Positions 6,299 to 43,198 of a DNA stretch of 64,000 nt are shown in pieces. The notes under the pieces are model-generated. The model was not told where the DNA came from and made no database searches. It saw nothing but the letters and a program-made list of their open reading frames with translations. This stretch comes from an uncultured Alphaproteobacteria bacterium. GTDB taxonomy: Bacteria; Pseudomonadota; Alphaproteobacteria; Rs-D84. Numbering within the stretch: the first letter of the stretch is position 1; each line of letters begins with the position of its first letter. The translations under genes were made by a program, and so were the position numbers. The stretch is from NCBI GenBank assembly GCA_949878575.1, contig CATLAX010000001.1, forward strand, positions 320,220 to 384,219, in the 5' to 3' direction.

Positions 6299-6373
6299 AT
6301 CACCCGGTGGTGTGCGGCGCAAATGCGCCGCACACCGCGGGACAAATCAATCATATTTCAACGGGAGAAAACA

Positions 6374-7243
6374 ATGGCAGAAATAACAGCAAAACTGATT
6401 CAACAGCTGCGTGAAAAAACATCCGCCGGCATGATGGATTGCAAGAAAGCGCTGATAGAGGCAAACGGCGACATAGAGGCGGCTGCCGATTGGTTGCGTC
6501 AAAAGGGCATTGTAAAGGCCGCGTCAAAGGCGGGCCGTGTTGCGGCATCCGGTCTGGTCACGGTTGTTAAATGCGACGGTTTGGGTTGCGTTGTTGAATT
6601 GAATGCGGAAACGGATTTCGTGGCCAAAAATGACAAGTTCCAGAAACTGGTGGCGGATGTCGCCGCACGTGCGCTGGCGTTAAAGGGCGATTTTGATGCG
6701 ACACTGGCCGCGGTTAAGGATGATATTGCCGCAACGATTTCCACAATCGGTGAAAACATGAACCTGCGCCGTATTGCAAAGGTTTCCGGTGATCATATTT
6801 ATACATATGTGCACAATGCCATGGTTCCCGGCATGGGTCAGATTGGTGTTGCGGTTGCAATAAACGGTGATGGCGCCGCGATTGATGAAATCGGGCCGAA
6901 AATTGCGATGCACATTGCCGCGAACAAGCCGGAATTCATGACGATTGACGATGTTGATCCGGCGGCGGTTGAACGCGAAAAGAAGGTGTTTATTGAATCC
7001 GGCGCAACCGCGGGCAAACCGGACATGGTTGTTGAAAAGATGGTTTCGGGCCGTATTGCGAAATACTATGCCGAAAGCGTTCTGGAAGAACAGCCGTTCG
7101 TTATGGACCCGTCCAAAAAGGTTAAGGACGTCGTGGCCGAGGCTGGCGGAAAACTGGCCGGCTTTGCGTTCTATGTCCTGGGCGAAGGGATTGAGAAGAA
7201 AGACGACAACCTGGCCGACGAAGTGGCCAAGATGTTGGGCTAA
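6374..7243 (+). CDS. tsf: Elongation factor Ts
   Basis: MAEITAKLIQQLREKTSAGMMDCKKAL... lies directly downstream of rpsB, giving the conserved rpsB-tsf pair. Confidence 0.95.
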   Translation: MAEITAKLIQQLREKTSAGMMDCKKALIEANGDIEAAADWLRQKGIVKAASKAGRVAASGLVTVVKCDGLGCVVELNAETDFVAKNDKFQKLVADVAARALALKGDFDATLAAVKDDIAATISTIGENMNLRRIAKVSGDHIYTYVHNAMVPGMGQIGVAVAINGDGAAIDEIGPKIAMHIAANKPEFMTIDDVDPAAVEREKKVFIESGATAGKPDMVVEKMVSGRIAKYYAESVLEEQPFVMDPSKKVKDVVAEAGGKLAGFAFYVLGEGIEKKDDNLADEVAKMLG

Positions 7244-7340: not shown

Positions 7341-7745
7341 ATGGAAATATATAAGGCTGCTTTTGTATATAACAAACCGGGTGCCAAATATTTGGAGGTA
7401 TGGCAGCCGAATTTTACACCGGCGCCGGTTTATATTCCGGTAATGTATCGTAATTTGTTACAAAGCGGAATGTACATACGGGTATACAAAAATCGTGACA
7501 ATGCCACGATGGCGTATGGATTCGGCAATAATTTGCTGTTCGTAAACCCGCCGACAACGCGTTATGAAATGCAGTTGGTGTTGAACAATATGCGCGATAT
7601 TTATTCCGGAAAACTGGACAGTCTGTTGTTTAAATACGATTTGCGCCGCTGTTTAAGCAAAAACGGACTGTGTCCGACACATGATGCCATAACAAATATG
7701 ATATTGTATGCGTTGGCGATGGATATATATCGCGGCGAACGGTAA
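7341..7745 (+). CDS. Hypothetical protein
   Basis: 134-aa ORF with no recognisable motif. Confidence 0.35.
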   Translation: MEIYKAAFVYNKPGAKYLEVWQPNFTPAPVYIPVMYRNLLQSGMYIRVYKNRDNATMAYGFGNNLLFVNPPTTRYEMQLVLNNMRDIYSGKLDSLLFKYDLRRCLSKNGLCPTHDAITNMILYALAMDIYRGER

Positions 7746-8055
7746 CCGTTTGCGTGTTTTTGTTTGATGTAAATTCGTTTGTTTTTTCGTCGATGTCATT
7801 GTTACGTTTGCGTCCGCGCGGGGTGCGGGCGGACAGGATGGCCCGGCGAATTTCTTTTTGGTTGGCCAGAGCCGGGGTACACCAGCCGACGTCGGGCCAT
7901 AAATTTCATATGATTTTGTTATAGGGCCGGGTGGCAGATAGCCCCACCTTTTTCTGATTGGAGATGAGAAGCAGGTAAAGAACCCATCATAAAAGCCACC
8001 CGGTAAAAATTAACCGCCAAAAGAAAGCCAGACGCATAATAAGGCTTTTAAAAGC

Positions 8056-8127
8056 GGTTGGAGGTTAAGAAACTATCATTCTAAGAAAATAGCCCGGTTT
8101 ATTCAATACATTCACCGGCCTCCAACC
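8056..8127 (+). repeat. Hairpin repeat element, copy 1 (GGTTGGAGG ... TTATTCAATACATTCAC ... CCTCCAACC)
   Basis: 9-bp terminal inverted arms ggttggagg/cctccaacc enclose a conserved internal motif. Confidence 0.8.
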
Positions 8128-8281
8128 AGCAAGGTCAGAGTGTTTTAACGTGCCCCGGCACGCTTAGAATGGAGGTTTCTTAAGCCTCACACTAATATCA
8201 TTAGTGCATATGAATAATATCATATATTTTTAATTGTATCAAGAAAAAAATAATGCAAAAACCATCCTCTAATTTTTAGAC

Positions 8282-8346
8282 GGTTGGGGGTAAGAACTAC
8301 CATTCAGAATAGCGCAGTTATTCAATATATTCACTGCCCCCCAACC
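8282..8346 (+). repeat. Hairpin repeat element, copy 2 (arms GGTTGGGGG/CCCCCAACC, compensatory change)
   Basis: Same internal motif ttattcaatatattcac. Both arms changed A->G / T->C so that pairing is preserved. Confidence 0.8.
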
Positions 8347-8459
8347 ATATGTTAGAGTATTTTTTATTTGAATGAATAGGTTCTTATGCCTATACCGGCA
8401 ACACACCGATACATAGACAATTATATATAATATTTTGCTGATTTCAATATATAAAAAGT

Positions 8460-8529
8460 TGGTCGGATGTTCTAAACTATATCAATGTGATAGAGTGGCT
8501 TATTCCGTATATTCGCCACCATCCGACCA
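8460..8529 (+). repeat. Hairpin repeat element, copy 3 (arms TGGTCGGATG/CATCCGACCA, compensatory changes)
   Basis: Internal motif ttattccgtatattcgcca. The arms differ from the consensus but remain complementary. Confidence 0.7.
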
Positions 8530-8626
8530 TGTGGGAATTATATCATATTTATATTGATGTTTATATGCTAAAAAGTTGCATGGGCGCCAAAAAGCTGATA
8601 TTATTTTTATTTGAAAAGGATTAGCC

Positions 8627-17946: not shown

Positions 17947-17978
17947 TGAAAATCCCGCCAAACGGCGGGATTTTCTTT
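17947..17978 (+). terminator. Intrinsic terminator after PFOR
   Basis: aaatcccgccaaacggcgggattttctttg. Confidence 0.65.
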
Positions 17979-18069
17979 GCAATGTGCTCTTTTTATGCTA
18001 TAATTCATAATGCATCGGGTGACGCCCGGTGCGGGGTGTAGTAACCTCGTGTAGTTTTTTCTCCAACCC

Positions 18070-18135
18070 GGTTGGAGGGCTGTGATATATTTGAATAAGC
18101 AGCACTATTGCTACAGTAGTTACTAACCTCCAACC
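18070..18135 (-). repeat. Hairpin repeat element, copy 4 (inverted orientation)
   Basis: The reverse complement reads ggttggagg ttagtaactactgtagcaatagtgctgc ttattcaaatatatcacag ccctccaacc. It lies just upstream of XRE gene 18189. Confidence 0.8.
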
Positions 18136-18188
18136 GCCCATTCGTCACGGGCGGTGTTTTTAATTAAAAAAACAATGGAGTGTAAACT

Positions 18189-18500
18189 ATGAAAACACAA
18201 TTGAACAAGCGTCCGGCCGACCCGGCACGTCGTATAAAGGTACATCCTGTTATTGCGAAAAGATTTTCACACAGTCTGCCGCCGAATGTTTTGCTGTTTC
18301 GGGCGCGTCAAATGATGGGCGTATCGCGGCAGCTGTTGGCCGAAGAAATGGGAATTTCACGGGCTTTGTTACGTAAATATGAATGCAGTGAGGTAAAAAT
18401 ACCGGCAAGTTTTCTGTTAAAGATTTTTATGTTTGGTCTGGATTTTTGGACTGACGGAATTTACTGGAATATTGATGGTTCGGAACAAACACAGAAATAA
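18189..18500 (+). CDS. XRE-family HTH transcriptional regulator (small)
   Basis: HTH segment RARQMMGVSRQLLAEEMGISRALLRKYE. Confidence 0.6.
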   Translation: MKTQLNKRPADPARRIKVHPVIAKRFSHSLPPNVLLFRARQMMGVSRQLLAEEMGISRALLRKYECSEVKIPASFLLKIFMFGLDFWTDGIYWNIDGSEQTQK

Positions 18501-18502
18501 CA

Positions 18503-18528
18503 AAACGGCCCCGTGGGGCCGTTTTATT
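18503..18528. terminator. Bidirectional terminator shared by convergent genes
   Basis: aaacggccccgtggggccgttttattt. Confidence 0.7.
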
Positions 18529-21500
18529 TAGAACCGGTATGAACCAGACAGCTTTATCTTATGCATTTGGATGTCTGCATTGTACTGATAACGGTAATCC
18601 AGACCAACCTGAACACCGGTTACAGACAAGAATTCCATGCCGCCACCGATATTCGCCCACAGCGGGTCTATATCAACATCGTATTTTGTAAAGTGCTTTG
18701 CCGCCGCAAACTTGTACTTTGCATTGTCCGGCGCGCCCAGTACGTCATATTCCACGCCGATGGCCGCATACGGACGCAACTGGAACCATGCGGACGGATA
18801 TATGCGCTTTTGCGCGGTTAACGTATACCCCGGCGTTACAATCATGTACCCGTCTGATTTCAATTTCATGTAATCGTCGCCGGCGGCCTTTTCCTTAACG
18901 GAAAATCCAAAATTGTATCCGACGCGGGCGTAAACATTGCCGACAATGTATTGATTCAACCAGTCGTGCATTAACCCCCATTCCGATATTAGGCTAAACG
19001 CTGTTCCGTCGCCGTCAATTTTGGACATATATGTCTGGTCGCGCGTAACATCCAGCCAGTGCAGGTCCAGGAATGCGTTCCCGTACAGGCGCATTTTTGT
19101 CCCCAGATTCTGCATCATATATGCACCCAGACCAAAATTTGTGTCAGATACGGTCGTATTAACACTGCCCGCAATGTACTGGCCCGGCAGATAGCCCAGA
19201 TCCATCGCGTCGTCATTGTCGCCCGACATGTGGGAAACACGGCCCGCCAGTCCCAGAATCAATGTTTCCGTTTCCTGCCAGTCGTATCCGCCGGTAAAGC
19301 CGAATCGGTCTGATGCGACGCGTTTGCCGTCGTCAACCTTTTGGCGTGCCGTGCCGAAATCAAATTCGCCCCAGGCCTTGCGCAAATGACGGTTGCGGTT
19401 CCATATGAATTCATCCAGCATGCGGTCTTCAAAATCACGGAAAGACGTATGTTCGTTCAGAACGACGCTGCCGGCCATCTGTTCTATTTCACGCGGCTGG
19501 AACAGGCGGCTAAAGCGGGCCAGACCGCGACCATCACGCGTGGTGTTGTAGTATTCCATGCGGTTTAACAGTTCTTTGGACATTTCTTCCATGTTTGTGC
19601 CGGCGAATGCAACCGGTATCGCCTCTATCGGTGTGCGGTTATAGAATTTCGCATCGGCCAGACCGCCCGCAATCAAATCATCCAATGCACCGGCGGTTGT
19701 GTATTCACCCTTTGTATGGTCGTTTTCACGTTCAACGATGGGTTGAATCTTGAACACCTGTACCGGGCCGCCAAAGCGCGGATCAAATACCAGATACAGA
19801 CTGTCCGCGGTGCCGTCGCTGTTATAATCACGAACAGATATGTATGCCGGCAAATCGGTTCCCGTTTCATTCAGGCCCTGTGTCGGCTTGAAATAATCAA
19901 AGCATTTGCTGCCGTCCGCGTTGCAGAATTTTACGGCAACATTGCGGATTTTCGTACCTTCTTCGCGGATGCCGCCGTCTGCATGCAGCAGCCATATTGC
20001 GGTACCCTGATCAATCATGTCAAATATTTGTACGCCCATCTGGCCATCGTTTAACAGACCCGTATCATTGTTGATGTTGTCGCCCAGGTTTGTAATGAAC
20101 GTGCCGTTTACGGAAATCAAAGGCTCCGGATTCGGGTGTTTTGACGGGTCGTGTATAATCTGGCCCAGGGTTTTGTCATCGGCCAGGCTGACGTTCGCCC
20201 AATAGTCATATATTGTTGAATTCATGCCGCCACCCGCCGCATAGGGTAAAATCGCCATGTTCAGACCACTGTTGGAATCGTATGTATAGTTCCCCGTTAT
20301 TTTCATGTGTTCCAGACCGGTAAATTTCACGCCGCCTGATACGTTGCCCGTAACACCAACGTTTAGCCAGTTTGTTGCCGGCGTTGCCGCAACGGTCAAA
20401 TCTGTGGCGTCAATATTGCCGCCGACTGTGAAGTCACTGGTTCGCAGTGTTAGGCGCCCGGATTCCTGGGCCACGCCGGCAAAGGTTGCACTTGACGTTG
20501 TTATTGTATAATTGTTGGACATTACATTTATATCGCGTGCGTATACGGCGCCCGTATAATTTTGGCGCAACATGTTTTGCGAAAGTGCGCCGTTTGTTGT
20601 TAAACCCGCCCCCGCCAGTGTTGTTGTGCCGTTAAACATAGCATCCGCCACGTTTGTAATACCCGTGCCCGAATCCAGCGTTATGTCGCCGCCGGACATG
20701 ATGTTGTTCGCATCAATTCCGGTGCCGCCCGCCAGACGCAGCGTGCCGCTGTTTACGACGTTTGTCGTGGTTAGCTTGCCGCCGGCGGCAATGTCGGCAT
20801 CGGCCCCGGATGCCACGGTTACGTTTCCAGCGATTCGTGCGGCCCCCGTAAATACATAGTCAACCGATTCGCCCTGTGCTTTAAAATCACCCGTAACATT
20901 TAACGATTCGCCCGTAAAACGCCCGCTTTTTGTTATGTTCAGGCCGGCGGATTGCGCACCCTGGGTCATGTCGCCGTAAACGGATACCGGGCCGCCGATG
21001 TTTGTGTTCGCAACATCTATTGTTGCGGTTGCGCCGGATAAAACCGTCAATAGGCCAGTCGCGGTCAGTCTGTCGCCGATTATGGTCGTGGTGCCGGCAT
21101 TGGCGTTGATGGCGCCGGCATCAATGTTTGTTGCAACCAGTTTGGCCGTGCCGCTGTTGTTCAAATCCATCATGTCTATATAAGATGCATCAATGTTCAG
21201 CGCACCGGTATTCGCAACGGTTGCATCACCGCCCAGCGTGGCGATTTCCGCCGCGGTGATGTTTAATTCCCCGTTTGCAGTAATCCCGCCGTCAACAATG
21301 GCGTGTTTTGCAGACAATATGTTTAATGTCTTGCCGGATGACATTTCTATACCGCCGACAAAGATGCTTTTTCCGTCCGGTTGTGTCGTTAATGTGAACG
21401 TATCCGTATCTTTTACAATCAGGCCTGTCGCCGGGTCTGTTGACGGATTGTTAAACCATATTGTGTCATCAATGTGTATGGAATCCGTGGCGGCAATCTG

Positions 21501-23672
21501 TTGGCCGTGCATGATATATTGACCATTGCCGGACAAAGAGCCAACTTTTACCTCATTCCCATAGAACTCAATGGAGCCGGCATTGTTTGCCAGATCTTTG
21601 GCCGTTGTAACATCGCCCTTGATTGTTGTGGCGCTGTTTTCATTGTTTCCGAATATCAGGTGGCCCAGTCCCGCGGCATCAGCGTTGCCGTCCACCGTTA
21701 TAACATTATTGCCGGCTATGAATTGTGCCGTGCGGGAAACGTCGCTTTGCACGGCGGCGATATTGCCCCCGATTGTCATGCCGCCATCTGACGTTAATAC
21801 AAAATTTTGGGTGCCGTTGCCGCCGATGTTCACAGCGCCCGGCGCATCCGCGGGCAGGGCCTGTGTCGCGGATAGTGTTACGTCGCCGGCGATTTTTGTT
21901 TCGCCTGTTACGTGCAGATCCGTTGTTGCGTCGCCGATGTTTATGACGCCGGCCGTGGTATACAAATTGCCGTTTACCGTCATCGGGCCGATTAATGAGT
22001 TCAGATTCGTTGTGCCGCCATCGGCGCGTATCGCCCCCAGTGTTACGGCGCCCCCGTTTTTATCAGAGCCCAATATTGACAGCGTGCCGCCTTTGGTTGT
22101 GATTGTGTCTTTTATGTCAATGGTGCGGGCATTAATATTCATTTCACCGCTTTCGTTTGTGACAGTGCCATAAACAATTACCGCACCGGTCGGCGATGTG
22201 GCGGCGGAAATGTTCATATTGCCGGCATTTGTTATGGACGTTGCCGCGGTAAGCGTGCCGAATTTTACGCTGTCCTCGTTAAGTATGTTTATGGTTGCGC
22301 CGGAATTGCTGACAACCGCACCGTTTATCTGCATGTCGCTGGCGCCAGATATGGTGGTAATGCCAGAATTCCCGGTGATGCCGTTCGCTATTGTTATGGC
22401 GTCGCCGGCGGATGTATCTGTTGCCGTAATGTTTAAGTTTTTGCCGGAATTTGTAACGGAATTTGCAGAAATATTTTGCGCCGTTACGGTCATGTTTGCG
22501 TTCGTGTTGGAAACGGCATCAGACTGACCATTGATTATGTTTGTGTTCAGTGCCAAATCACCGTTTTTTACGATTACTGTAAAATTGTTCAATTTATTTG
22601 AAAACAGCTGCAGCCAGTTTTCATCCCCGCCGACATTCAGCGTCCCGGCGGACAGATAAAATTCGTTTGTAGTCTGCATCGCGCTGTTGTCAAAACCGTT
22701 CGCCAGGCTTAAGGCACCGGTAATATTCAATGTCAAATCACCGCTGTTTACAAAAGATGCGTTGTTGTGCGTGGCGTCTGTTCCGGTAACGGTCAGGCTG
22801 TTTGCACGGACAATCATAGTGCCGCCTTCGTTTGTCATGGCGCCGCCCGCGGTTACAGCGCTGCCTGTGGTAATATCCAACAGTTCGCCGCCCTTGTTTT
22901 CAATGACGCCGGCGGAATTTACGGCCCCGGATGTCTTTATGTACATTTTCCCGGCGTTGTTTTGCACGTTGCCGGATGTGACGGACGCGGCGTTAATGCT
23001 TGTTTCCGTGGCGGCCCCGGATGTCGTTATTGCCGCCGTGCCGGTATTCAGGCCGCCCGTCATTATAATATTGCCGTCCGAATCGAGATGGCCGATGGTC
23101 ATTTTTCCGCTGGTATTTTCAATGGCGCCGGTTGTCATGGAAACCGCGTTTATATCCAGTTCCATGGCCCCGGTATTGTTGCGAATCGCACCGGTGGATG
23201 TAAACGTGCCGATATTGGTCAAATCAAGCCGCGCCAGGTTATCAATGGATCCCACGGTCATGTTTGTTGGGGAAACGCCGTCGCTTTGGCCTATTTTCAG
23301 ATAGTTCCCAGCCTCTACCTGCAACATGTTTGCTATTTTTATCGGGCCGTCGGATGCGATGGTAAATCCGTTTGCCGTGCCGGCCGCCGTTTCATTTAAT
23401 ATAAATATCCATCCCGTATCGGCGCCCGTATTGTGTCCGACAATCATTCCGCCCGCTATATCAATGCCGTTTGTGCCGACATTCATGTTTTTGGCGACGG
23501 TTCCGTTGTTTGGATCGTTTCTGACAACAACACTGGATGTGTCCGTGTCAATGTTTAATGTCGTATCCGTTACGGCAATGGTGCCGTTTGCATCCGGATC
23601 CAAATAAGTGGGGACCGCCATAGCACCGAACGGCGCCATGCAGAAAATAAAAGAAAATAGCTTTTTTATCAT
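18528..23672 (-). CDS. Giant autotransporter (type Va) adhesin-like protein, about 1715 aa
   Basis: Signal peptide MIKKLFSFIFCMAPFGAMA. About 1300 aa of T/G/N/A-rich imperfect repeats (beta-helix-like passenger). A C-terminal ~280-aa beta-barrel region ends ...LSGSYRF (terminal aromatic). Confidence 0.75.
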   Translation of the reverse strand: MIKKLFSFIFCMAPFGAMAVPTYLDPDANGTIAVTDTTLNIDTDTSSVVVRNDPNNGTVAKNMNVGTNGIDIAGGMIVGHNTGADTGWIFILNETAAGTANGFTIASDGPIKIANMLQVEAGNYLKIGQSDGVSPTNMTVGSIDNLARLDLTNIGTFTSTGAIRNNTGAMELDINAVSMTTGAIENTSGKMTIGHLDSDGNIIMTGGLNTGTAAITTSGAATETSINAASVTSGNVQNNAGKMYIKTSGAVNSAGVIENKGGELLDITTGSAVTAGGAMTNEGGTMIVRANSLTVTGTDATHNNASFVNSGDLTLNITGALSLANGFDNSAMQTTNEFYLSAGTLNVGGDENWLQLFSNKLNNFTVIVKNGDLALNTNIINGQSDAVSNTNANMTVTAQNISANSVTNSGKNLNITATDTSAGDAITIANGITGNSGITTISGASDMQINGAVVSNSGATINILNEDSVKFGTLTAATSITNAGNMNISAATSPTGAVIVYGTVTNESGEMNINARTIDIKDTITTKGGTLSILGSDKNGGAVTLGAIRADGGTTNLNSLIGPMTVNGNLYTTAGVINIGDATTDLHVTGETKIAGDVTLSATQALPADAPGAVNIGGNGTQNFVLTSDGGMTIGGNIAAVQSDVSRTAQFIAGNNVITVDGNADAAGLGHLIFGNNENSATTIKGDVTTAKDLANNAGSIEFYGNEVKVGSLSGNGQYIMHGQQIAATDSIHIDDTIWFNNPSTDPATGLIVKDTDTFTLTTQPDGKSIFVGGIEMSSGKTLNILSAKHAIVDGGITANGELNITAAEIATLGGDATVANTGALNIDASYIDMMDLNNSGTAKLVATNIDAGAINANAGTTTIIGDRLTATGLLTVLSGATATIDVANTNIGGPVSVYGDMTQGAQSAGLNITKSGRFTGESLNVTGDFKAQGESVDYVFTGAARIAGNVTVASGADADIAAGGKLTTTNVVNSGTLRLAGGTGIDANNIMSGGDITLDSGTGITNVADAMFNGTTTLAGAGLTTNGALSQNMLRQNYTGAVYARDINVMSNNYTITTSSATFAGVAQESGRLTLRTSDFTVGGNIDATDLTVAATPATNWLNVGVTGNVSGGVKFTGLEHMKITGNYTYDSNSGLNMAILPYAAGGGMNSTIYDYWANVSLADDKTLGQIIHDPSKHPNPEPLISVNGTFITNLGDNINNDTGLLNDGQMGVQIFDMIDQGTAIWLLHADGGIREEGTKIRNVAVKFCNADGSKCFDYFKPTQGLNETGTDLPAYISVRDYNSDGTADSLYLVFDPRFGGPVQVFKIQPIVERENDHTKGEYTTAGALDDLIAGGLADAKFYNRTPIEAIPVAFAGTNMEEMSKELLNRMEYYNTTRDGRGLARFSRLFQPREIEQMAGSVVLNEHTSFRDFEDRMLDEFIWNRNRHLRKAWGEFDFGTARQKVDDGKRVASDRFGFTGGYDWQETETLILGLAGRVSHMSGDNDDAMDLGYLPGQYIAGSVNTTVSDTNFGLGAYMMQNLGTKMRLYGNAFLDLHWLDVTRDQTYMSKIDGDGTAFSLISEWGLMHDWLNQYIVGNVYARVGYNFGFSVKEKAAGDDYMKLKSDGYMIVTPGYTLTAQKRIYPSAWFQLRPYAAIGVEYDVLGAPDNAKYKFAAAKHFTKYDVDIDPLWANIGGGMEFLSVTGVQVGLDYRYQYNADIQMHKIKLSGSYRF

Positions 23673-23759
23673 ATTTTTTTGTTTATTTTTGGTTTTGATT
23701 GTGCTCTTATTGTTCAACAAATTGGTAGTATAAGGCAAGTTAAAAAATCTTGTTTGTAA

Positions 23760-25320: not shown

Positions 25321-25353
25321 AAAACAGGCGAGCAAATGCCCGCCTGTTTTTAT
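25321..25353. terminator. Bidirectional terminator
   Basis: aaaacaggcgagcaaatgcccgcctgtttttatttt. Confidence 0.7.
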
Positions 25354-25700
25354 TTTGCGGCGATAATGGATTGAGCCAGTTCCATAATAAGTTTCCGTTG
25401 TTCCCGGTTCATTTTATACATTAATTTGATTACCTCTGTTATGTCGCGGTCGTGTGCGTATGTTTGTGACACACCGTCCAGCAGCTGGCCGACGGTCATT
25501 TCAAAAACATTTGCTATTTGTATCAGGGTACCCACATATATTCTGTTGCCGCCTGTTTCGTATTTTTGTACCTGTTGAAATGTAACGTTCAGATGTTTTG
25601 CCAAACCTTTTTGAGACATGCCCATGCGTCGCCGTGATATTGCAATAATTTCCCCGATGCGAATATCGTATTCGGACGGTGTGCTTTTTTTACCCGCCAT
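25350..25700 (-). CDS. XRE-family HTH transcriptional regulator
   Basis: SRRRMGMSQKGLAKHLNVTFQQVQKYETG HTH. It is paralogous in type to 18189..18500. Confidence 0.7.
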   Translation of the reverse strand: MAGKKSTPSEYDIRIGEIIAISRRRMGMSQKGLAKHLNVTFQQVQKYETGGNRIYVGTLIQIANVFEMTVGQLLDGVSQTYAHDRDITEVIKLMYKMNREQRKLIMELAQSIIAAK

Positions 25701-25756
25701 TTTGCCTTCCCCTGTTGTGTTATATGTTAAATAAAAACCACTTGAAAAATTCAGGT

Positions 25757-25833
25757 GGTTGGAGGTTCATACTACACAAGGTATAGCGCGCTTATTAGCC
25801 GACCATAGGCCGGGGTATTCACGCCCTCCAACC
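25757..25833 (+). repeat. Hairpin repeat element, copy 5 (long-loop subtype)
   Basis: ggttggagg ... gcttatt[insert]tattcacg ccctccaacc. It is followed by the second conserved hairpin at 25900..25928. Confidence 0.75.
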
Positions 25834-25899
25834 CGATTAAGGTATTGAAGGGCTGCGTTTTTTATATCTCTGCATATTTGATACAGCCATACAGAGAAA

Positions 25900-25928
25900 A
25901 CCTTGTGGGGATATGAAGCCCCATAATG
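25900..25928 (+). repeat. Second conserved hairpin of the composite unit (ccttgtGGGGatatgaaGCCCCataa)
   Basis: It recurs at 26139..26166 with a compensatory change (AGGG/CCCT). Confidence 0.6.
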
Positions 25929-26017
25929 GATGGTTAGTTCCATTACTTTAATGATTATACTAAATTTATGAAAAACATTCAAATAAAAAAGCCTCAAATA
26001 ATATTGAGGGCTGGAGG

Positions 26018-26087
26018 TTCATATTACACAAGGTGTATAGTGCTTATTATAATGGCATGCCATTAATATTCAGACACCCTCCAACCC
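26018..26087 (+). repeat. Hairpin repeat element, copy 6 (long-loop subtype)
   Basis: gggctggagg ... gcttatt[atggcatgccat]taatattcagacac cctccaaccc. Confidence 0.7.
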
Positions 26088-26138
26088 GTAAAGATTGAAG
26101 GTGTTTTACATATGGATACTTAAAATGTATCCGCTATA

Positions 26139-26166
26139 ACCTTGTAGGGATATGAAACCCTATAAC
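26139..26166 (+). repeat. Second conserved hairpin, copy 2 (ccttgtAGGGatatgaaACCCTataa)
   Basis: Covaries with 25900..25928. Confidence 0.6.
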
Positions 26167-26252
26167 AGTACGTTACTACTTGCTACAATGGGCAGTATAT
26201 CCTAAAAAACGGTGCAAAGCCAGCATAAAAAATCCCCCGTTCGGGGGATTTG

Positions 26253-37934: not shown

Positions 37935-40900
37935 ATGCGGATATTTGGTTTTGATTTGGGAATTGCAAGCATCGGCTGGGCGGTTGTTGACATAGAAAAA
38001 GAAAACAATAACCCAGAGGTGGAACGTGCCACTGTTGGTAAAATACAGCAGTCTGGGGTGCGTATTTTTAGTGTCGCAGAAAACCCAAAGGACGGTTCTT
38101 CATTGGCGGCACCGCGCCGCGAGAAGCGGCGGGTCCGTCGTGCGTTGCGCAGGAAGGCGCTGCGAATGAAAGAAATTCGCGCATTGTTGGAAAATAGCGG
38201 CCTGGGCAACCAAAATATCGTTGTTAATTCTGATGATATTGATGTCTGGGCTTTGCGTGCCGAAGATGCCTTTTGCCGCAAGTTGTCGCCACGTGAACTG
38301 TCGCGTGTACTGGTTCATATGGCCAAACATCGTGGGTATAAGTCAATGCGTAAGTCCGCAGAGGAAAACGATAAAGAAACCGGAAAGGTCCTTGTTTCAA
38401 TCGCGCGAAATCGCGAACGTATGGGCGAGTATAAAACAATGGCCCAAATGATTTATAAGAGCGGCTGCAATGATGCAAAAAAATATCGCAATGGTGATGG
38501 CGTATATGATAATTCAATCCCGCGGGAAGAAATAGAGAGGGAACTGGATTTAATTTTTGACGCTCAGCAAAAATATGGGTTGTTTACGCCAGAATTACTG
38601 GAACAATACAAAAAAATCGCATTTCGTGTGCGGCCGATGCAGTCTGTTGGTAAAATGGTTGGCGGGTGTACGTTAGAGCCGAATTGTTTGCGCGCACCGA
38701 AAGAGGCGCCCACGGCAGAATTATTTGTGGCGCTGACCCGTATAAACAACATGAAAATTGTTATTGATGGTGAAGTTCGCTCTGTAAATGATGAAGAACG
38801 GACGGCCATCCTGGATTTGTTGCGCAAGACGCAAACGGTTAAATATAAAACATTGCATAACAAAATATGGAAGGGGCAAGACGTCGTTTTTCGCGGTGTA
38901 AAAGAAGAAACTCAAGATTTTTATTCCATGGCCGGATGGCATAAATTAAAGAAAATCTTGAATGATGCCGATATGGCGGATATGCGAATGCTTGACCGGA
39001 TTATGAAGGTTGTTGCAACCCAGAAAGATGAAGCGGCAATAGCAAAAGAATTACGACGCAAGAAAGTCCCAGAAAAATATATTGCAAAATTAAAGGAATT
39101 GTCTACGTCCAAATTCATAAATCTGTCTTTGCAGGCCTTGTATAAAATTGTCCCGGAAATGATGCGCGGGCTGACGTATGACAAGGCTTGTGCGGCGGTC
39201 GGCTATGATTTTAAAACCAAAGTATCCGGGGATGTAAAGGTGGATAATGGCTGCATTGCAGAGATTTCAGAATGGACGCGTGTCCCGGTTGTTAATCGTA
39301 CTGTAGCACAGTTTCGCAAGGTGTACAATGCGCTGGTCCGGAAATATGGCGCCCCGGATCAGGTGAATTTAGAGGTTGGACGCGAATTAAAGAATAACTT
39401 TGATGATCGTAAAAAAATAGAACGTCAACAGAATGAAAATCGCGATAAAAATGATAAAGCGCGCGCAGAATATGAGGGGCTGGTCGGGCGCAAGGCAACG
39501 GCCAAAGAAGTCTTAAAATATAAACTGTATCAGGACCAAAACTGCCAATGCATGTATTCTGGCGAGGCGATTGATTTAGCGCATCTGGATGATTATGAGA
39601 TTGATCATATCTTGCCGTATTCGCGGTCGTTGGATAATTCTTATACCAACAAGGTTTTGGTTAAATACACAGAAAATCAGGCAAAAGGCAACAAGACGCC
39701 ATATGAATATCTTGGCAATACCGCACGCTGGGACGCGTTTGTCGGGCGTGTGTCCGCAATCAAGACTGCCTTGGGGGGACGTAAGATTGCAAATCTATTG
39801 AACAAAGATTTTGAAGCAAAAGAAGAGGATTTTCGCGAACGCAATGCAAATGATAACGCGTATGCATCCCGCCATATCCGCCAGATTTTAAGCATCGCTT
39901 TCCCGGAATTGCGTGTTGATGTTCGCGCCGGGGCATTGACACATTATTTGCGCGGGCAATGGGGGCTGGAAAAATCGCGTACGGAATCAGACAGGCACCA
40001 TGCCCAGGATGCGATTGTTGTCGCCTGTGCAACACAGGGGATGGTGCAGTATTTGTCAACAATATCTGGGTTGTTTGAAAATAAACGTAACGAGAAGGAT
40101 AAACCGTGGTGGAATAGGTTAAAACAAAACATTCAAGAACCGTGGGATGGATTTCGTGCCGATGTTTTGCGGTCGTTGGATGAAGTGTTTGTTTCGCGCA
40201 CGGTGCGTGGCAAGGCAACGGGCTCGGCGCATAAGGATACCATCAATTCACCAAAAACTAATAAAGGCAGCATGATTTTGCCGCGTGGACGCGCCGATAA
40301 AGACAATATGTTCCGCATGGATATCTTTAAAAAAGACGGAAAATATGTGGTTGTGCCAATATTTGTGGCAGACACGGTTGACAAAAAACGCCAAGATATA
40401 TTTTACCCACAACCCGCCAAGGCGCATAATCCGGTCGCAGTTGATGATACTTATGAATTTGTTATGACATTGCACAAGGATGATTATATCAAGATCACGA
40501 CAGCAGATGACAAAATATATGAGGGGTATATTGTTCAATGCAATATGCCTGTTGGACAGTTTGTTATAAGAAGTACTGATAATTCCGCGGTATTTTCTGT
40601 CAAAACAGATACCTTTGAACCAGACAATTTTATTGTCATAGATGGTAATTTGTGTAAAGTTAAGGATTATGAATGCGGTAAATTGCGTGCAGTGCGCATG
40701 AATGGTGTTGTTGAGGAAATTGATGCCATGAAGAAGCACATGCGTAGTGGCGAGGTCGCGAAAAAGCAAATACAGACAGTAGATAAATATGAAAAGCGTG
40801 ATGCGCAAAAAACGATAAATGTTGGTACTTTTAAAAACTTGCAAAAATTTCATATTGATGTTTTGGGCGATAGGTCAGAGGTTAAATCTGAACATCGTGC

Positions 40901-41006
40901 GCCGGTCTGCGCTATAAAACCGCAATCAGAAAAAAGAAAAGGAAGGAAGCAACCTAAAAGGAATAAAAATGGGGTGGCGAATCCTTCAACTAACGAAACC
41001 GTGTAA
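37935..41006 (+). CDS. cas9: Cas9, type II-C, compact (1023 aa)
   Basis: RuvC-I is MRIFGFDLGIASIGWAVV (catalytic Asp). An Arg-rich bridge helix (RREKRRVRRALRRKALR) follows. The HNH region is YEIDHILPYSRSLDNSYTNKVLV...N. RuvC-III is HHAQDAIVVACATQG. Confidence 0.95.
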   Translation: MRIFGFDLGIASIGWAVVDIEKENNNPEVERATVGKIQQSGVRIFSVAENPKDGSSLAAPRREKRRVRRALRRKALRMKEIRALLENSGLGNQNIVVNSDDIDVWALRAEDAFCRKLSPRELSRVLVHMAKHRGYKSMRKSAEENDKETGKVLVSIARNRERMGEYKTMAQMIYKSGCNDAKKYRNGDGVYDNSIPREEIERELDLIFDAQQKYGLFTPELLEQYKKIAFRVRPMQSVGKMVGGCTLEPNCLRAPKEAPTAELFVALTRINNMKIVIDGEVRSVNDEERTAILDLLRKTQTVKYKTLHNKIWKGQDVVFRGVKEETQDFYSMAGWHKLKKILNDADMADMRMLDRIMKVVATQKDEAAIAKELRRKKVPEKYIAKLKELSTSKFINLSLQALYKIVPEMMRGLTYDKACAAVGYDFKTKVSGDVKVDNGCIAEISEWTRVPVVNRTVAQFRKVYNALVRKYGAPDQVNLEVGRELKNNFDDRKKIERQQNENRDKNDKARAEYEGLVGRKATAKEVLKYKLYQDQNCQCMYSGEAIDLAHLDDYEIDHILPYSRSLDNSYTNKVLVKYTENQAKGNKTPYEYLGNTARWDAFVGRVSAIKTALGGRKIANLLNKDFEAKEEDFRERNANDNAYASRHIRQILSIAFPELRVDVRAGALTHYLRGQWGLEKSRTESDRHHAQDAIVVACATQGMVQYLSTISGLFENKRNEKDKPWWNRLKQNIQEPWDGFRADVLRSLDEVFVSRTVRGKATGSAHKDTINSPKTNKGSMILPRGRADKDNMFRMDIFKKDGKYVVVPIFVADTVDKKRQDIFYPQPAKAHNPVAVDDTYEFVMTLHKDDYIKITTADDKIYEGYIVQCNMPVGQFVIRSTDNSAVFSVKTDTFEPDNFIVIDGNLCKVKDYECGKLRAVRMNGVVEEIDAMKKHMRSGEVAKKQIQTVDKYEKRDAQKTINVGTFKNLQKFHIDVLGDRSEVKSEHRAPVCAIKPQSEKRKGRKQPKRNKNGVANPSTNETV

Positions 41007-41874
41007 ACTATCGGTAAAACAAAAACAATTATTTTACGAATCAGATGATACCAAAACAACGATTCCGATAGAGGATTTATCGGTCGTTGTTTTGGAAACC
41101 GGCTTTGTGCAACTAACGGGACATGTCTTGTCAGAATTTGCGGCAAACGATGTTGTGCTGCTGACCTGCGATGCATCGCATTTGCCGGCGGGAACCTTTT
41201 TCCCGTTTCACGATAACTCGCGTTATTCGGAAATGGCGCATATTCAAATTTCGGCCAGCGAACCATTAAAAAAGCGTGTCTGGCAATCGGTTGTGCAGCA
41301 AAAGATTCTGAACCAGTCGGCGGTATTGCATGCATTTGGAACAGAAAACGCATTGTCTGAAATTGCAAAACGCGTACAAAGCGGCGATAGTGATAATCGT
41401 GAGGCCCATGCGGCGCAATTATATTGGCGATTGTTGTTTGGTGATTTTACGCGACGTGATGATGCGAACATTATAAATAAAGCACTAAACTATGGATATG
41501 CCATTGTGCGCGGCTGCGTGGCGCGTAATATTGTTGCGTCCGGATTATTGCCATGTTTTGGTATCCATCATGATAATCAGCTGAATCAATTTAATCTGGT
41601 TGATGACATGATGGAACCGCTGCGCCCGTTTGTGGATTATAGTGTGGCAAAGTTGGACTTGTCCGATTGCTCAGACTTAACACCAGAATTAAAAAATAAA
41701 CTAATATCAGTATTATTATGTAACGCAAATGTGGGGGGTGAAGCAATATCGTTGCTTAAGTGTGCAGAAATGATGTCGGCATCACTGTCCAAGGTATTTA
41801 GACAAAAGGATTGTCGTTTATTGGTGTTGCCGGTGTTTGATAATTCTCTGCTGGATATGGAGGATTTTGACTAA
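40969..41874 (+). CDS. cas1: Cas1 integrase
   Basis: 301 aa. MGWRILQLTKPCKLSVKQKQLFYESDDTKTTIPIEDLSVVVLE is a typical type II Cas1 N-terminus. Its start overlaps the cas9 3' end by 38 nt. Confidence 0.93.
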   Translation: MGWRILQLTKPCKLSVKQKQLFYESDDTKTTIPIEDLSVVVLETGFVQLTGHVLSEFAANDVVLLTCDASHLPAGTFFPFHDNSRYSEMAHIQISASEPLKKRVWQSVVQQKILNQSAVLHAFGTENALSEIAKRVQSGDSDNREAHAAQLYWRLLFGDFTRRDDANIINKALNYGYAIVRGCVARNIVASGLLPCFGIHHDNQLNQFNLVDDMMEPLRPFVDYSVAKLDLSDCSDLTPELKNKLISVLLCNANVGGEAISLLKCAEMMSASLSKVFRQKDCRLLVLPVFDNSLLDMEDFD

Positions 41875-42203
41875 TGGCGCAATATGGGGAACGATTTATG
41901 AGAATGATAGTATTTTTTGATTTACCAACACTGACAAAGCAAGACAGAAAACAAGCGTCCAAATTTCGTAATGCCTTGTTAAAGGATGGGTACTATATGA
42001 TGCAACTGTCTGTTTATTCAAGGATTTGTAAGGGTATGGCACAGGTTGAAAAACATGCCGGACGCCTAAAATGCTTGATTCCGCCCAGTGGAAGTGTTAG
42101 ACTGATGACGGTAACAGAAAAACAGTTCGCTGATATGGAAATATTGGTCGGCGAATCGAAAAAACAAGAAAAAATAGGTGCAAAGCAACTTGTTATGTTT
42201 TAG
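41874..42203 (+). CDS. cas2: Cas2
   Basis: MRMIVFFDLPTLTKQDRKQASKFRNALLKDGYYMMQLSVYSRI. The ATG overlaps the cas1 stop. Confidence 0.9.
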   Translation: MAQYGERFMRMIVFFDLPTLTKQDRKQASKFRNALLKDGYYMMQLSVYSRICKGMAQVEKHAGRLKCLIPPSGSVRLMTVTEKQFADMEILVGESKKQEKIGAKQLVMF

Positions 42204-42227
42204 TTTTTCTTTAAAGAATTACAAAAT

Positions 42228-42256
42228 AACCCGCTATATTCAGCGGGTTGTTTTGT
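42228..42256. terminator. Hairpin terminator between cas2 and the array (usable from either strand)
   Basis: aacccgctatattcagcgggtt + gttttgtt. Confidence 0.55.
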
Positions 42257-42260
42257 TGGT

Positions 42261-42956
42261 ATTATATCAAAACCAATTTGGAAAGCAATCTACAACCGTA
42301 TCGTCTTGTTTGGGAACATTGGAAAGATTATATCAAAACCAATTTGGAAAGCAATCTACAACTATGCCTCGTTCTCAATATCGTGACTTTATATTATATC
42401 AAAACCAATTTGGAAAGCAATCTACAACCACATTCATCGTCAAATACGCCAAGACGGTATTATATCAAAACCAATTTGGAAAGCAATCTACAACCGTAAA
42501 TTGTTTGGTACGCGCTTGTTATCTATTATATCAAAACCAATTTGGAAAGCAATCTACAACGTGAAGACCTCTTTTATGACTTTAAACAGTATTATATCAA
42601 AACCAATTTGGAAAGCAATCTACAACAAGAGTGTTGGCGTGAAATTCAGTTGCCTTATTATATCAAAACCAATTTGGAAAGCAATCTACAACGACCGATT
42701 TGACTGGTGGCATCCGGAATTTATTATATCAAAACCAATTTGGAAAGCAATCTACAACCTACCCGATATTCTTAAATGATGACCATCTATTATATCAAAA
42801 CCAATTTGGAAAGCAATCTACAACATTGATTGGCATAAATGCCGTTGCTCGTAAATTATATCAAAACCGATTTGGAAAGCAATCTACAACCGCTTGTTGG
42901 GGCTGTATGTTTCCTGCAATATTATATCAAAACCAATTAGAAAAACAATCTATAGA
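42261..42956 (-). CRISPR. CRISPR array: 11 x 36-bp repeats, 10 x 30-bp unique spacers. It is transcribed on the minus strand.
   Basis: Repeat (plus strand) ATTATATCAAAACCAATTTGGAAAGCAATCTACAAC with an exact 66-bp period from 42261. Repeat 10 has one SNP (CCGATTT). Terminal repeat 11 (42921..42956) is degenerate. The reverse complement GTTGTAGATTGC...TTTTGATATAAT matches the II-C repeat style and carries an extended -10. Confidence 0.95.
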
Positions 42957-43198
42957 GTTGTGGGTTATTATTAAGAGCTATTTTATTGTATAAAAAAATC
43001 GGTTCGGAGTTTGCCGAACCGATTCATCGCCTTCTCATCTCATTTATAATATTACATAATTTTTATGTCTTTTCCAGTATTATTTTTTTTGCCAGTGCTG
43101 TGAAAACAGTTGTTTTATAGTTAAAATTTGTAATAATTATGAAACGATAATAATCCCATATGATTTTTGCCGCCCGGGGCGGTAAAATTATGTAAAAC

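Follow-up and report, generated by a model that had tools for sequence, protein, structure and literature searches.

A family of structured leader RNAs, probably two-state transcription attenuators, ahead of small regulators and secreted proteins in gut Alphaproteobacteria

The question raised by this locus is what role is played by an inverted repeat, GGTTGGAGG...CCTCCAACC, which occupies positions 18070-18135 directly ahead of a gene for a small XRE-type regulator. In the window, by which we mean the whole 64-kb stretch of DNA analysed, the gapped pattern has three exact matches against 0.00 expected by chance. Alignment brings the total to six copies, copy 4 being opposite in orientation to the other five, and covariance model R1, run over the whole window, located no copy beyond these six. 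The first-pass annotation had noticed the hairpin upstream of two XRE genes, described it as antisense to both, and offered as possible roles an operator or leader structure, an antisense sRNA, or a mobile unit carrying the XRE gene. The geometry that it reported is right: the repeat ends 53 nt before the ATG of the gene at 18189; of the two copies ahead of the gene at 25700..25350 (minus strand), copy 5 stands 56 nt and copy 6 about 310-390 nt upstream; the element is oriented alike towards the HTH gene at the two loci; and a plus-strand hairpin with a T-run follows copy 4 (stem 18133-18155, T-run 18157-18161). The reading that we favour, and consider probable, is that the hairpin belongs to a family of structured 5' leader RNAs working as two-state transcription attenuators. 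The two regulator genes are as follows.

18189..18500, plus strand: XRE-type HTH gene 1, 103 aa (HTH_3 22.4 bits, E 1.2e-4, just under the cutoff of 23)
25350..25700, minus strand: XRE-type HTH gene 2, 116 aa (HTH_3, E 1.3e-8)

As to the surroundings of these genes, a 1736-aa ORF without Pfam match (18528-23738, minus strand), convergent with XRE gene 1, may encode a large surface protein peculiar to the lineage. Beyond the 3' end of XRE gene 2, and convergent with it, a 68-aa protein with a superinfection-immunity domain (PF14373; 25113-25319, plus strand) hints at accessory or prophage-derived surroundings of that gene. Elsewhere in the window, a complete type II-C-like CRISPR-Cas locus of low G+C content (0.40-0.46) extends over 37935-42960 and comprises Cas9 (1023 aa, 37935-41006, with HNH and RuvC domains), Cas1 (40969-41874), Cas2 (41874-42203) and a CRISPR array (42258-42960) of 11 repeats of 36 nt with a 66-nt period.

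The transcription unit and its strand

The reported 66-nt hairpin is only the 3' half of a structured RNA unit of about 125-190 nt. On the sense strand, the unit begins with hairpin P1 at the transcript start, followed by hairpin H2 (stem GRGG/CCYC, with a loop made of YGU and a variable segment a), a variable linker segment b, often a third hairpin (H3), and an A-rich stretch. The second part consists of c' (CUCCAAC), c (GGUUGGAGG), hairpin d with conserved GAAUA...AAUAAG, hairpin e (stem CUAU/AUAG, the loop of which carries b'), a', c'' (CCUCCAACC) and the terminator; the reported hairpin is the portion from c through c''. Read along the gene strand, the order is promoter, 5' hairpin, second hairpin, reported hairpin, terminator, about 52 nt, and then the RBS and start codon. 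The features of the six copies are listed below, beginning with copy 4.

18010..18161, plus strand: whole copy 4 unit
17977..18004, plus strand: copy 4 promoter (-35 TTGCAA, 16-nt spacer, TG-extended -10 TATAAT; 10 of 12 consensus matches)
18010..18069, plus strand: copy 4 5' domain (covariance-model match 18010-18135, 92.6 bits)
18012-18032, plus strand: copy 4 P1
18033-18048, plus strand: copy 4 H2, with segment a in its loop at 18039-18044
18050-18054, plus strand: copy 4 linker segment b
18061-18068, plus strand: copy 4 c' (CTCCAACC)
18070..18135, plus strand: copy 4 3' domain, the reported hairpin, a three-way junction
18070-18078, plus strand: copy 4 c
18079-18103, plus strand: copy 4 d
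18105-18119, plus strand: copy 4 e, with loop segment b' at 18111-18115
18120-18125, plus strand: copy 4 a'
18127-18135, plus strand: copy 4 c''
18133..18161, plus strand: copy 4 intrinsic terminator (stem 18133-18139 with 18149-18155; U-run 18157-18161)
8056..8242, minus strand: copy 1 (reported hairpin 8056-8127; promoter 8242..8214; RNA 8209..8056; 94.7 bits)
8259..8447, minus strand: copy 2 (reported hairpin 8282-8346; promoter 8447..8420, 11 of 12 consensus matches; RNA 8414..8282; terminator about 8285..8259)
8461..8571, minus strand: copy 3 (reported hairpin 8461-8530; 3' domain only, 8530..8461; promoter-like site 8571..8542)
25757..25982, minus strand: copy 5, whole (reported hairpin 25757-25833; RNA 25948..25757; 56.9 bits; long form with an extra inner hairpin in d)
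25982..25954, minus strand: copy 5 promoter (TTGAAT-17-TATAAT)
25833..25825 and 25765..25757, minus strand: copy 5 closing helix, c and c''
25731..25761, minus strand: copy 5 terminator (AACCACCUGAAUUUUUCAAGUGGUU, then a U-run), overlapping the last 4 nt of c''
25985..26181, minus strand: copy 6 (reported hairpin 26009-26086; RNA 26181..26009; terminator 26012..25992 and a U-run; 57.3 bits)

A sigma-70-like promoter lies 60-130 nt upstream of the hairpin, on the gene strand, in five of the six window copies, and a convincing hairpin with U-run directly follows the element in copies 2, 4, 5 and 6. Copy 1 has a weak terminator and no ORF longer than 35 aa behind it, and copy 6, in tandem upstream of copy 5, is likewise without an ORF of its own. 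In copy 3, TATAAT stands immediately 5' of c, and AAC and UUUUU come after the closing helix with no separate terminator hairpin; this copy, which lacks the 5' domain, is a minimal form that resembles the 88-nt sRNA-Xcc1, discussed below, in its layout. The 310-nt stretch after copy 1 (7745-8056, minus strand), itself without an ORF longer than 35 aa, shares GCTTCTCATCTCCAATCA, including a c'-like CTCCAATC, with a locus from another source (L044), where it lies downstream of 70-216, after a tandem array. This shared stretch may be a decayed further copy or some other conserved non-coding element.

The 'antisense' label of the first-pass annotation has to be reversed, for promoter, terminator, G-U pairs and the high covariance-model score all fall on the strand of the downstream gene. 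Model R1 gives the six window copies 57-95 bits in the sense direction and 15-30 bits in the antisense direction; copy 2, although outside the seed alignment, reaches 89.3 bits. Across 107 relatives among the matches listed, a position-specific TGnTAnAAT ends 7 nt before the 5' hairpin, with TTG at -35. G-U pairs are frequent (at the base of P1, for example, in 76 of 121 sequences among the matches listed) and would become C-A mismatches if the other strand were read, so that the element is strand-specific; the closing helix of copy 6 illustrates this with a U-G pair on the sense strand and C-A on the opposite one. An antisense sRNA, running against the direction of the XRE gene as first proposed, could appeal to the fact that the opposite strand folds too (-57.1 kcal/mol, z-score -4.79), but no conserved promoter or terminator is found there, the model scores are low and the G-U pairs turn into mismatches. 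We regard it as the least credible of all the readings considered, with next to no chance of being correct.

Relatives and covarying architecture

Relatives were sought in one genome per GTDB species with the pattern GGTTGGAGGTT..TTATT..CCTCCAACC, which is anchored on c and c''. At least 119 stretches matched; among the matches listed, nearly all of the genomes are MAGs of gut or rumen Alphaproteobacteria, many of them named Candidatus Enterousia, and several genomes contribute two to four loci each. Model R1 detected at least 121 sense-strand copies in 100 sources, about a dozen of which the pattern had missed, and its matches include tandem arrays such as the four copies in L044. A protein identical to that of XRE gene 1 is encoded on contigs of MAG GCA_948844765.1. 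Carriage by phages was considered and set aside, as 2.9 million viral contigs yielded only five matches. A tblastn search of all loci with tyrS and two neighbouring ORFs, directed at synteny of the tyrS-adjacent orphan array, gave no match, because the arrays sit at the ends of the loci. The literature searched contained no prior description of this RNA.

The element is a structured RNA, and a chance palindrome is excluded. Two alignments of sequences among the matches listed were analysed, A2 (MAFFT, 107 sequences) and A3 (model-fitted, 121 sequences). Both were seeded by a pattern that fixed c and c'', and A3 was moreover fitted to the fold described below as fold A, so that A2 provides the fairer figure: 89.2% of cells are paired, compared with 77.5% after shuffling, and covariation is 0.331 against 0.141. 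The corresponding values for A3 are 94.3% against 76.2% and 0.481 against 0.151. In neither alignment did any of 500 shuffles reach the score, and slid controls were 35-45% paired.

Two long-range helices, a/a' and b/b', tie the 5' half to the reported hairpin, and both covary. The a/a' helix is 98-99% paired (99.1% on A3) with changes on both sides at five of its six pairs, one of which occurs as AU 55 times, UA 24, GC 18 and CG 16. Since b/b' is too variable in length to align, it was assessed by an alignment-free test, in which the median number of contiguous pairs was 8 within a sequence and 4 between sequences (Mann-Whitney p = 3e-43). The closing helix c:c'' is 99.7% paired with changes on both sides at six of nine pairs, and compensated variants are found both in the window (GGUUGGGGG/CCCCCAACC in copy 2, GGUCGGAUG/CAUCCGACC in copy 3) and in copies recovered by the model only (GGUUGGAGU/ACUCCAACC in five copies, GAUUGGAG/CUCCAAUC and GGGUUGGACAG/CUGUCCACCC). 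P1, H2, H3 and e covary as well, exemplified by an H2 pair that is GC in 70 sequences, AU in 27 and GU in 20, and by an e pair that is UA in 91 and AU in 29. Hairpin d has partial covariation support, its hand-drawn pairs being only 70-72% paired because two subfamilies use different registers. A further covariation, seen once, between columns 33 and 122 of the filtered alignment links the Y of the H2 loop (GGGG-Y-GU) with a base in the 3' arm of d (U-A, C-G; 92% paired) and could be a tertiary contact or subfamily structure.

Two coding interpretations were tried and rejected. With regard to a small ORF within the hairpin, copies 4 and 5 contain GTG-initiated ORFs of 14 and 16 codons, in which the conserved AATAAGC, as judged by eye, falls in different frames. 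Leader-peptide attenuation was discarded on the grounds that the 5' domain has neither an SD nor a start codon and that its indels are not multiples of three.

The pairing constraints also bear on two interpretations at the level of DNA. A MITE- or REP-like mobile element, with GGTTGGAGG and CCTCCAACC as 9-bp terminal inverted repeats, would suit a multi-copy, intergenic and sometimes tandem distribution in which the repeat is nearly invariant and the interior varied. Near-identical copies bounded by terminal repeats and duplications are, however, not what is found: the copies are old and divergent (mean column identity 52% across the six window copies and 40% across the 107 relatives among the matches listed), they carry compensatory changes, and inspection of the flanks by eye showed no target-site duplication. 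Moreover, the conserved unit reaches 60-110 nt past the 'repeat' on one side only, keeps a fixed position with respect to promoter, terminator and start codon, bears strand-specific G-U pairs and is nearly absent from the viral contigs, with the five matches mentioned above. Such an origin is very improbable. An operator bound by the adjacent XRE repressor, to which the two window copies and the roughly 30% of relatives (among the matches listed) that adjoin small HTH genes would lend themselves, deserves slightly less credence still. The two arms of the repeat are 47 to 68 nt apart depending on the copy, the promoter lies upstream of the site, secreted proteins follow about half of the copies, and the constraint is one of RNA pairing, expressed in compensatory base-pair changes, G-U pairs and long-range helices.

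Downstream genes and two predicted folds

An SD-preceded ORF of at least 50 aa begins 35-70 nt after c'' in 94 of 126 copies, compared with one of 126 on the opposite side of the element (both counts among the matches listed). The distance from c'' to the ORF start has a median of 52 nt and an interquartile range of 46-56, and the gap between the U-run and the SD, about 10-25 nt, leaves no room for a promoter, so that the gene would have to be reached by read-through. XRE gene 1, a member of a 23-member downstream family, has an SD-like TGGAGTG at 18177-18183. Together with the unit's own promoter and intrinsic terminator, this arrangement supports the one proposal of the first-pass annotation that we retain, that of a leader structure.

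What the leaders precede is varied. Among 110 downstream ORFs in the matches listed, about 58 have signal peptides and about 32 encode small HTH proteins, the latter falling into families of 23, 6 and 3 members. The signal-peptide ORFs form several lineage-specific families, mostly without Pfam match, and include one outer-membrane beta-barrel and one protein with a Gly_rich_2 domain; an ABC exporter and an EcoRI-type methylase are found among the remaining ORFs. The association with XRE genes is therefore genuine but partial, small XRE genes following about 30% of the copies and secreted proteins about half (among the matches listed). Nor does the hairpin travel with its regulator as a mobile unit: the proteins of XRE genes 1 and 2 align with just 27% identity over 56 residues, revealing no duplicated XRE cassette, and most copies stand before other genes. 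The short form of the leader, without H3, is found before small proteins in 12 of 13 cases and before signal-peptide proteins in 0 of 47 (among the matches listed). Leader subtype thus tracks gene class, which indicates that leader and gene evolved together.

The most substantial competing explanation holds that the copies are stand-alone genes for trans-acting sibling sRNAs, in which the terminator does no more than end the sRNA, and the genes behind it are either incidental or expressed on their own. Each copy has its own promoter and terminator, orphan and tandem copies without an ORF occur (in the window, copies 1-3 and 6; in L044, a tandem array of four), and sRNA-Xcc1, the top Rfam match, is visible on Northern blots (PMC2996969) and arranged in tandem in Xylella (PMC12189769). 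This explanation is nevertheless hard to reconcile with the narrow range of distances at which an ORF follows c'' in 94 of 126 copies (matches listed), leaving no room for a promoter, or with a closing helix that overlaps the terminator. The conserved d loop was considered as a site for a trans target and dropped, its complements in the window all lying within the elements themselves. We judge a purely stand-alone function unlikely; the sRNA and leader roles are not mutually exclusive.

In the attenuator model that we prefer, each unit would have a sigma-70 promoter of its own and be transcribed codirectionally with the gene behind it, and its RNA could adopt either of two folds. In fold A, c (GGUUGGAGG) would pair with c'' (CCUCCAACC) and close a three-way junction with d and e, loop segment a of H2 would pair with a' just before c'', and linker b with b' in the loop of e. 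With c'' thus occupied, the terminator stem would be short of the 3-4 pairs at its start, and polymerase would continue into the gene. In fold T, c would pair with c' (CUCCAAC) upstream, which would free c'', permit the terminator to form and give a terminated RNA of about 150 nt. The combination of c':c and terminator would be the stop state, and c:c'' locked by the 5' domain the read-through state. Orphan and tandem copies would produce the short RNA alone, which may also act in trans. A small ligand, a protein or another RNA could set off the switch.

Anatomy, strand, covariation, gene spacing and the overlap between closing helix and terminator are shown by the sequence comparison. In 99 of 123 copies, the terminal 3-4 nt of c'' (AACC) form the start of the terminator's 5' arm, and the terminator hairpin weakens from a mean of -10.2 to -3.75 kcal/mol when c'' is blocked (both among the matches listed). 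For copy 4, whose terminator stem shares the last 3 nt of c'', the change is from -13.6 to -6.6 kcal/mol, and for copy 5 from -9.1 to -1.4 kcal/mol. Like a terminator riboswitch, the family possesses a structured domain supported by covariation, and its closing helix and terminator are mutually exclusive as judged by computation alone.

Support for the individual helices differs in kind. Covariation favours those of fold A (c:c'', H2 and e); in the helices that occur in fold T alone, most of the variation is one-sided. The c':c helix is 95-97.5% paired, and its variation consists almost entirely of C to U or A to G changes, by which a wobble pair between c' and c is kept. By energy, c' is the preferred partner of c in 121 of 123 copies, and in 104 of these the minimum-energy structure contains the terminator as well (matches listed). 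For copy 4, nearest-neighbour folding yields a minimum-energy structure (-64.5 kcal/mol, z-score -5.26) that combines c':c with a long GGGG-a-b / b'-a'-CCUC helix and the full terminator. Enforcing c:c'' costs 10.7 kcal/mol on average, a figure that ignores pseudoknots and gives no credit for a/a' and b/b'.

Departures from the consensus are also informative. In three divergent copies (L044:290-441, L044:964-1114 and L019:7133-7294), c' is uncompensated. Two further copies, which we term type 2 (L044 about 6328-6560 and L037 4008-4095, locus coordinates of c to c'', both minus strand), have changed three segments jointly, c' to UCCCGAC, c to GG(Y)CGGGG and c'' to CCCCGACC, and retain a/a', b/b' and the overlap with the terminator, with a signal-peptide ORF behind each. 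Neither was reported by R1 at E up to 1e-4, and one was matched by the Rfam model for sRNA-Xcc1 (32.7 bits). A requirement that c match both c' and c'' would explain the near-invariance of these segments.

Further observations count against the attenuator reading. The terminator overlap amounts to only 3-4 nt, and copies 1, 2, 3 and 6, four of the six in the window, are not followed by a gene, as would befit a stand-alone sRNA. No single metabolite or pathway emerges from the genes that the leaders precede. On balance, we infer that the RNA probably does switch between the two folds in the cell and that read-through drives the gene.

sRNA-Xcc1 and other known systems

At Rfam 15 gathering thresholds, the window contains two tRNAs only, and no Rfam riboswitch model matches the element. 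The likeness to terminating riboswitches and the trp leader lies in a conserved pseudoknotted fold directly upstream of an intrinsic terminator and in nucleotides shared by closing helix and terminator. The alternative 1:2/3:4 and 2:3 pairings of four-segment attenuators find their counterparts in c':c plus terminator and in c:c''. Unlike riboswitches, the family precedes a heterogeneous set of genes that share no ligand-indicating pathway and point to no metabolite, and orphan copies without a gene are common; unlike either class, it has no known ligand or leader peptide. A parallel in distribution is offered by the c-di-GMP-I/GEMM leaders, which occur in many copies per genome, some in tandem, and often before genes for surface or secreted proteins, as the present leaders often do before secreted proteins. 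Type III toxin-antitoxin (ToxIN-like) systems also combine tandem RNA units with a terminator and a gene reached by read-through. The units described here, by contrast, measure 150-250 nt and possess individual promoters and terminators, and the proteins are HTH or secreted proteins and not endoribonucleases, which places the family outside that class.

On the reading preferred here, uncultured gut Alphaproteobacteria (the Enterousia group) would have a control element ahead of dozens of their lineage-specific secreted proteins and small regulators; the genes concerned may constitute a regulon serving interaction with host or community. With more than 120 sequences among the matches listed, clear covariation and two alternative folds, the family is well suited to the search for a ligand or protein and to studies of co-transcriptional folding.

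The known RNA that comes nearest is sRNA-Xcc1 (RF02221), which was first found in an integron cassette of Xanthomonas campestris. It is described as a trans-acting sRNA, not an attenuator; the 2011 paper on it is reportedly to that effect, judging by its title as cited in other papers. It is found upstream of an ORF6N-domain protein in APSE phages. On Northern blots from Xanthomonas, it appears as an 88-nt RNA (PMC2996969), it lies upstream of symE in Xanthomonas integron cassettes (bioRxiv 10.1101/2025.06.18.660453), and Xylella has seven copies, five of them in tandem (PMC12189769).

At relaxed thresholds, RF02221 is the sole recurrent Rfam match to the element, in every case to the sense strand and along the full model, with 26.3 bits for copy 1, 26.7 for copy 5, 36.8 for a copy in L012 and 32.7 for the type 2 copy at L044:6328-6422; these scores stay below the gathering score of 53 bits, and copies 2, 3, 4 and 6 give no match at E <=10. 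Full-length alignment to the RF02221 structure recovers a three-way junction with a 9-bp closing helix and two hairpins. Both RNAs have a G+C-rich closing helix of 9 bp, two inner hairpins, a U-rich 3' junction and then a U-run, both are multi-copy and tandem, and both stand directly upstream of small accessory genes. Copy 3 and the type 2 copies (GG(Y)CGGGG/CCCCGACC) are the most similar to the sRNA-Xcc1 consensus. The sRNA-Xcc1 transcript of about 88 nt starts from the 5' strand of the closing helix; in copy 3 a TATAAT immediately precedes c, and the other five copies and more than 100 relatives would begin 60-110 nt upstream, at P1. From this sequence and structural likeness, we consider sRNA-Xcc1 a probable distant relative of the element.

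There are differences as well. Most copies here have an extra 5' domain of 60-110 nt, made up of P1, H2, c' and often also H3, which two covarying long-range helices connect to the junction. The sequence of the closing helix and the conserved d loop (GAAUA...AAUAAG) differ, and the hosts are gut Alphaproteobacteria, compared with Beta- and Gammaproteobacteria for sRNA-Xcc1. The 5' domain and the proposed switch have not previously been described for the sRNA-Xcc1 family, which is annotated in many pathogens and mobile elements and whose function is poorly understood; our findings suggest a cis-regulatory role for it. More speculatively, and as a possibility that we ourselves hold doubtful, the leaders may constitute a new riboswitch-like class that senses one global signal, for example a second messenger, through a three-way-junction aptamer clamped by two hypervariable long-range helices, and that switches on a regulon of secreted proteins and small XRE regulators. 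In that case, both RNAs would belong to one attenuator superfamily with sRNA-Xcc1 as its minimal core, and the widespread sRNA-Xcc1 copies of integrons, phages and genomic islands would be attenuators and not ordinary base-pairing sRNAs.
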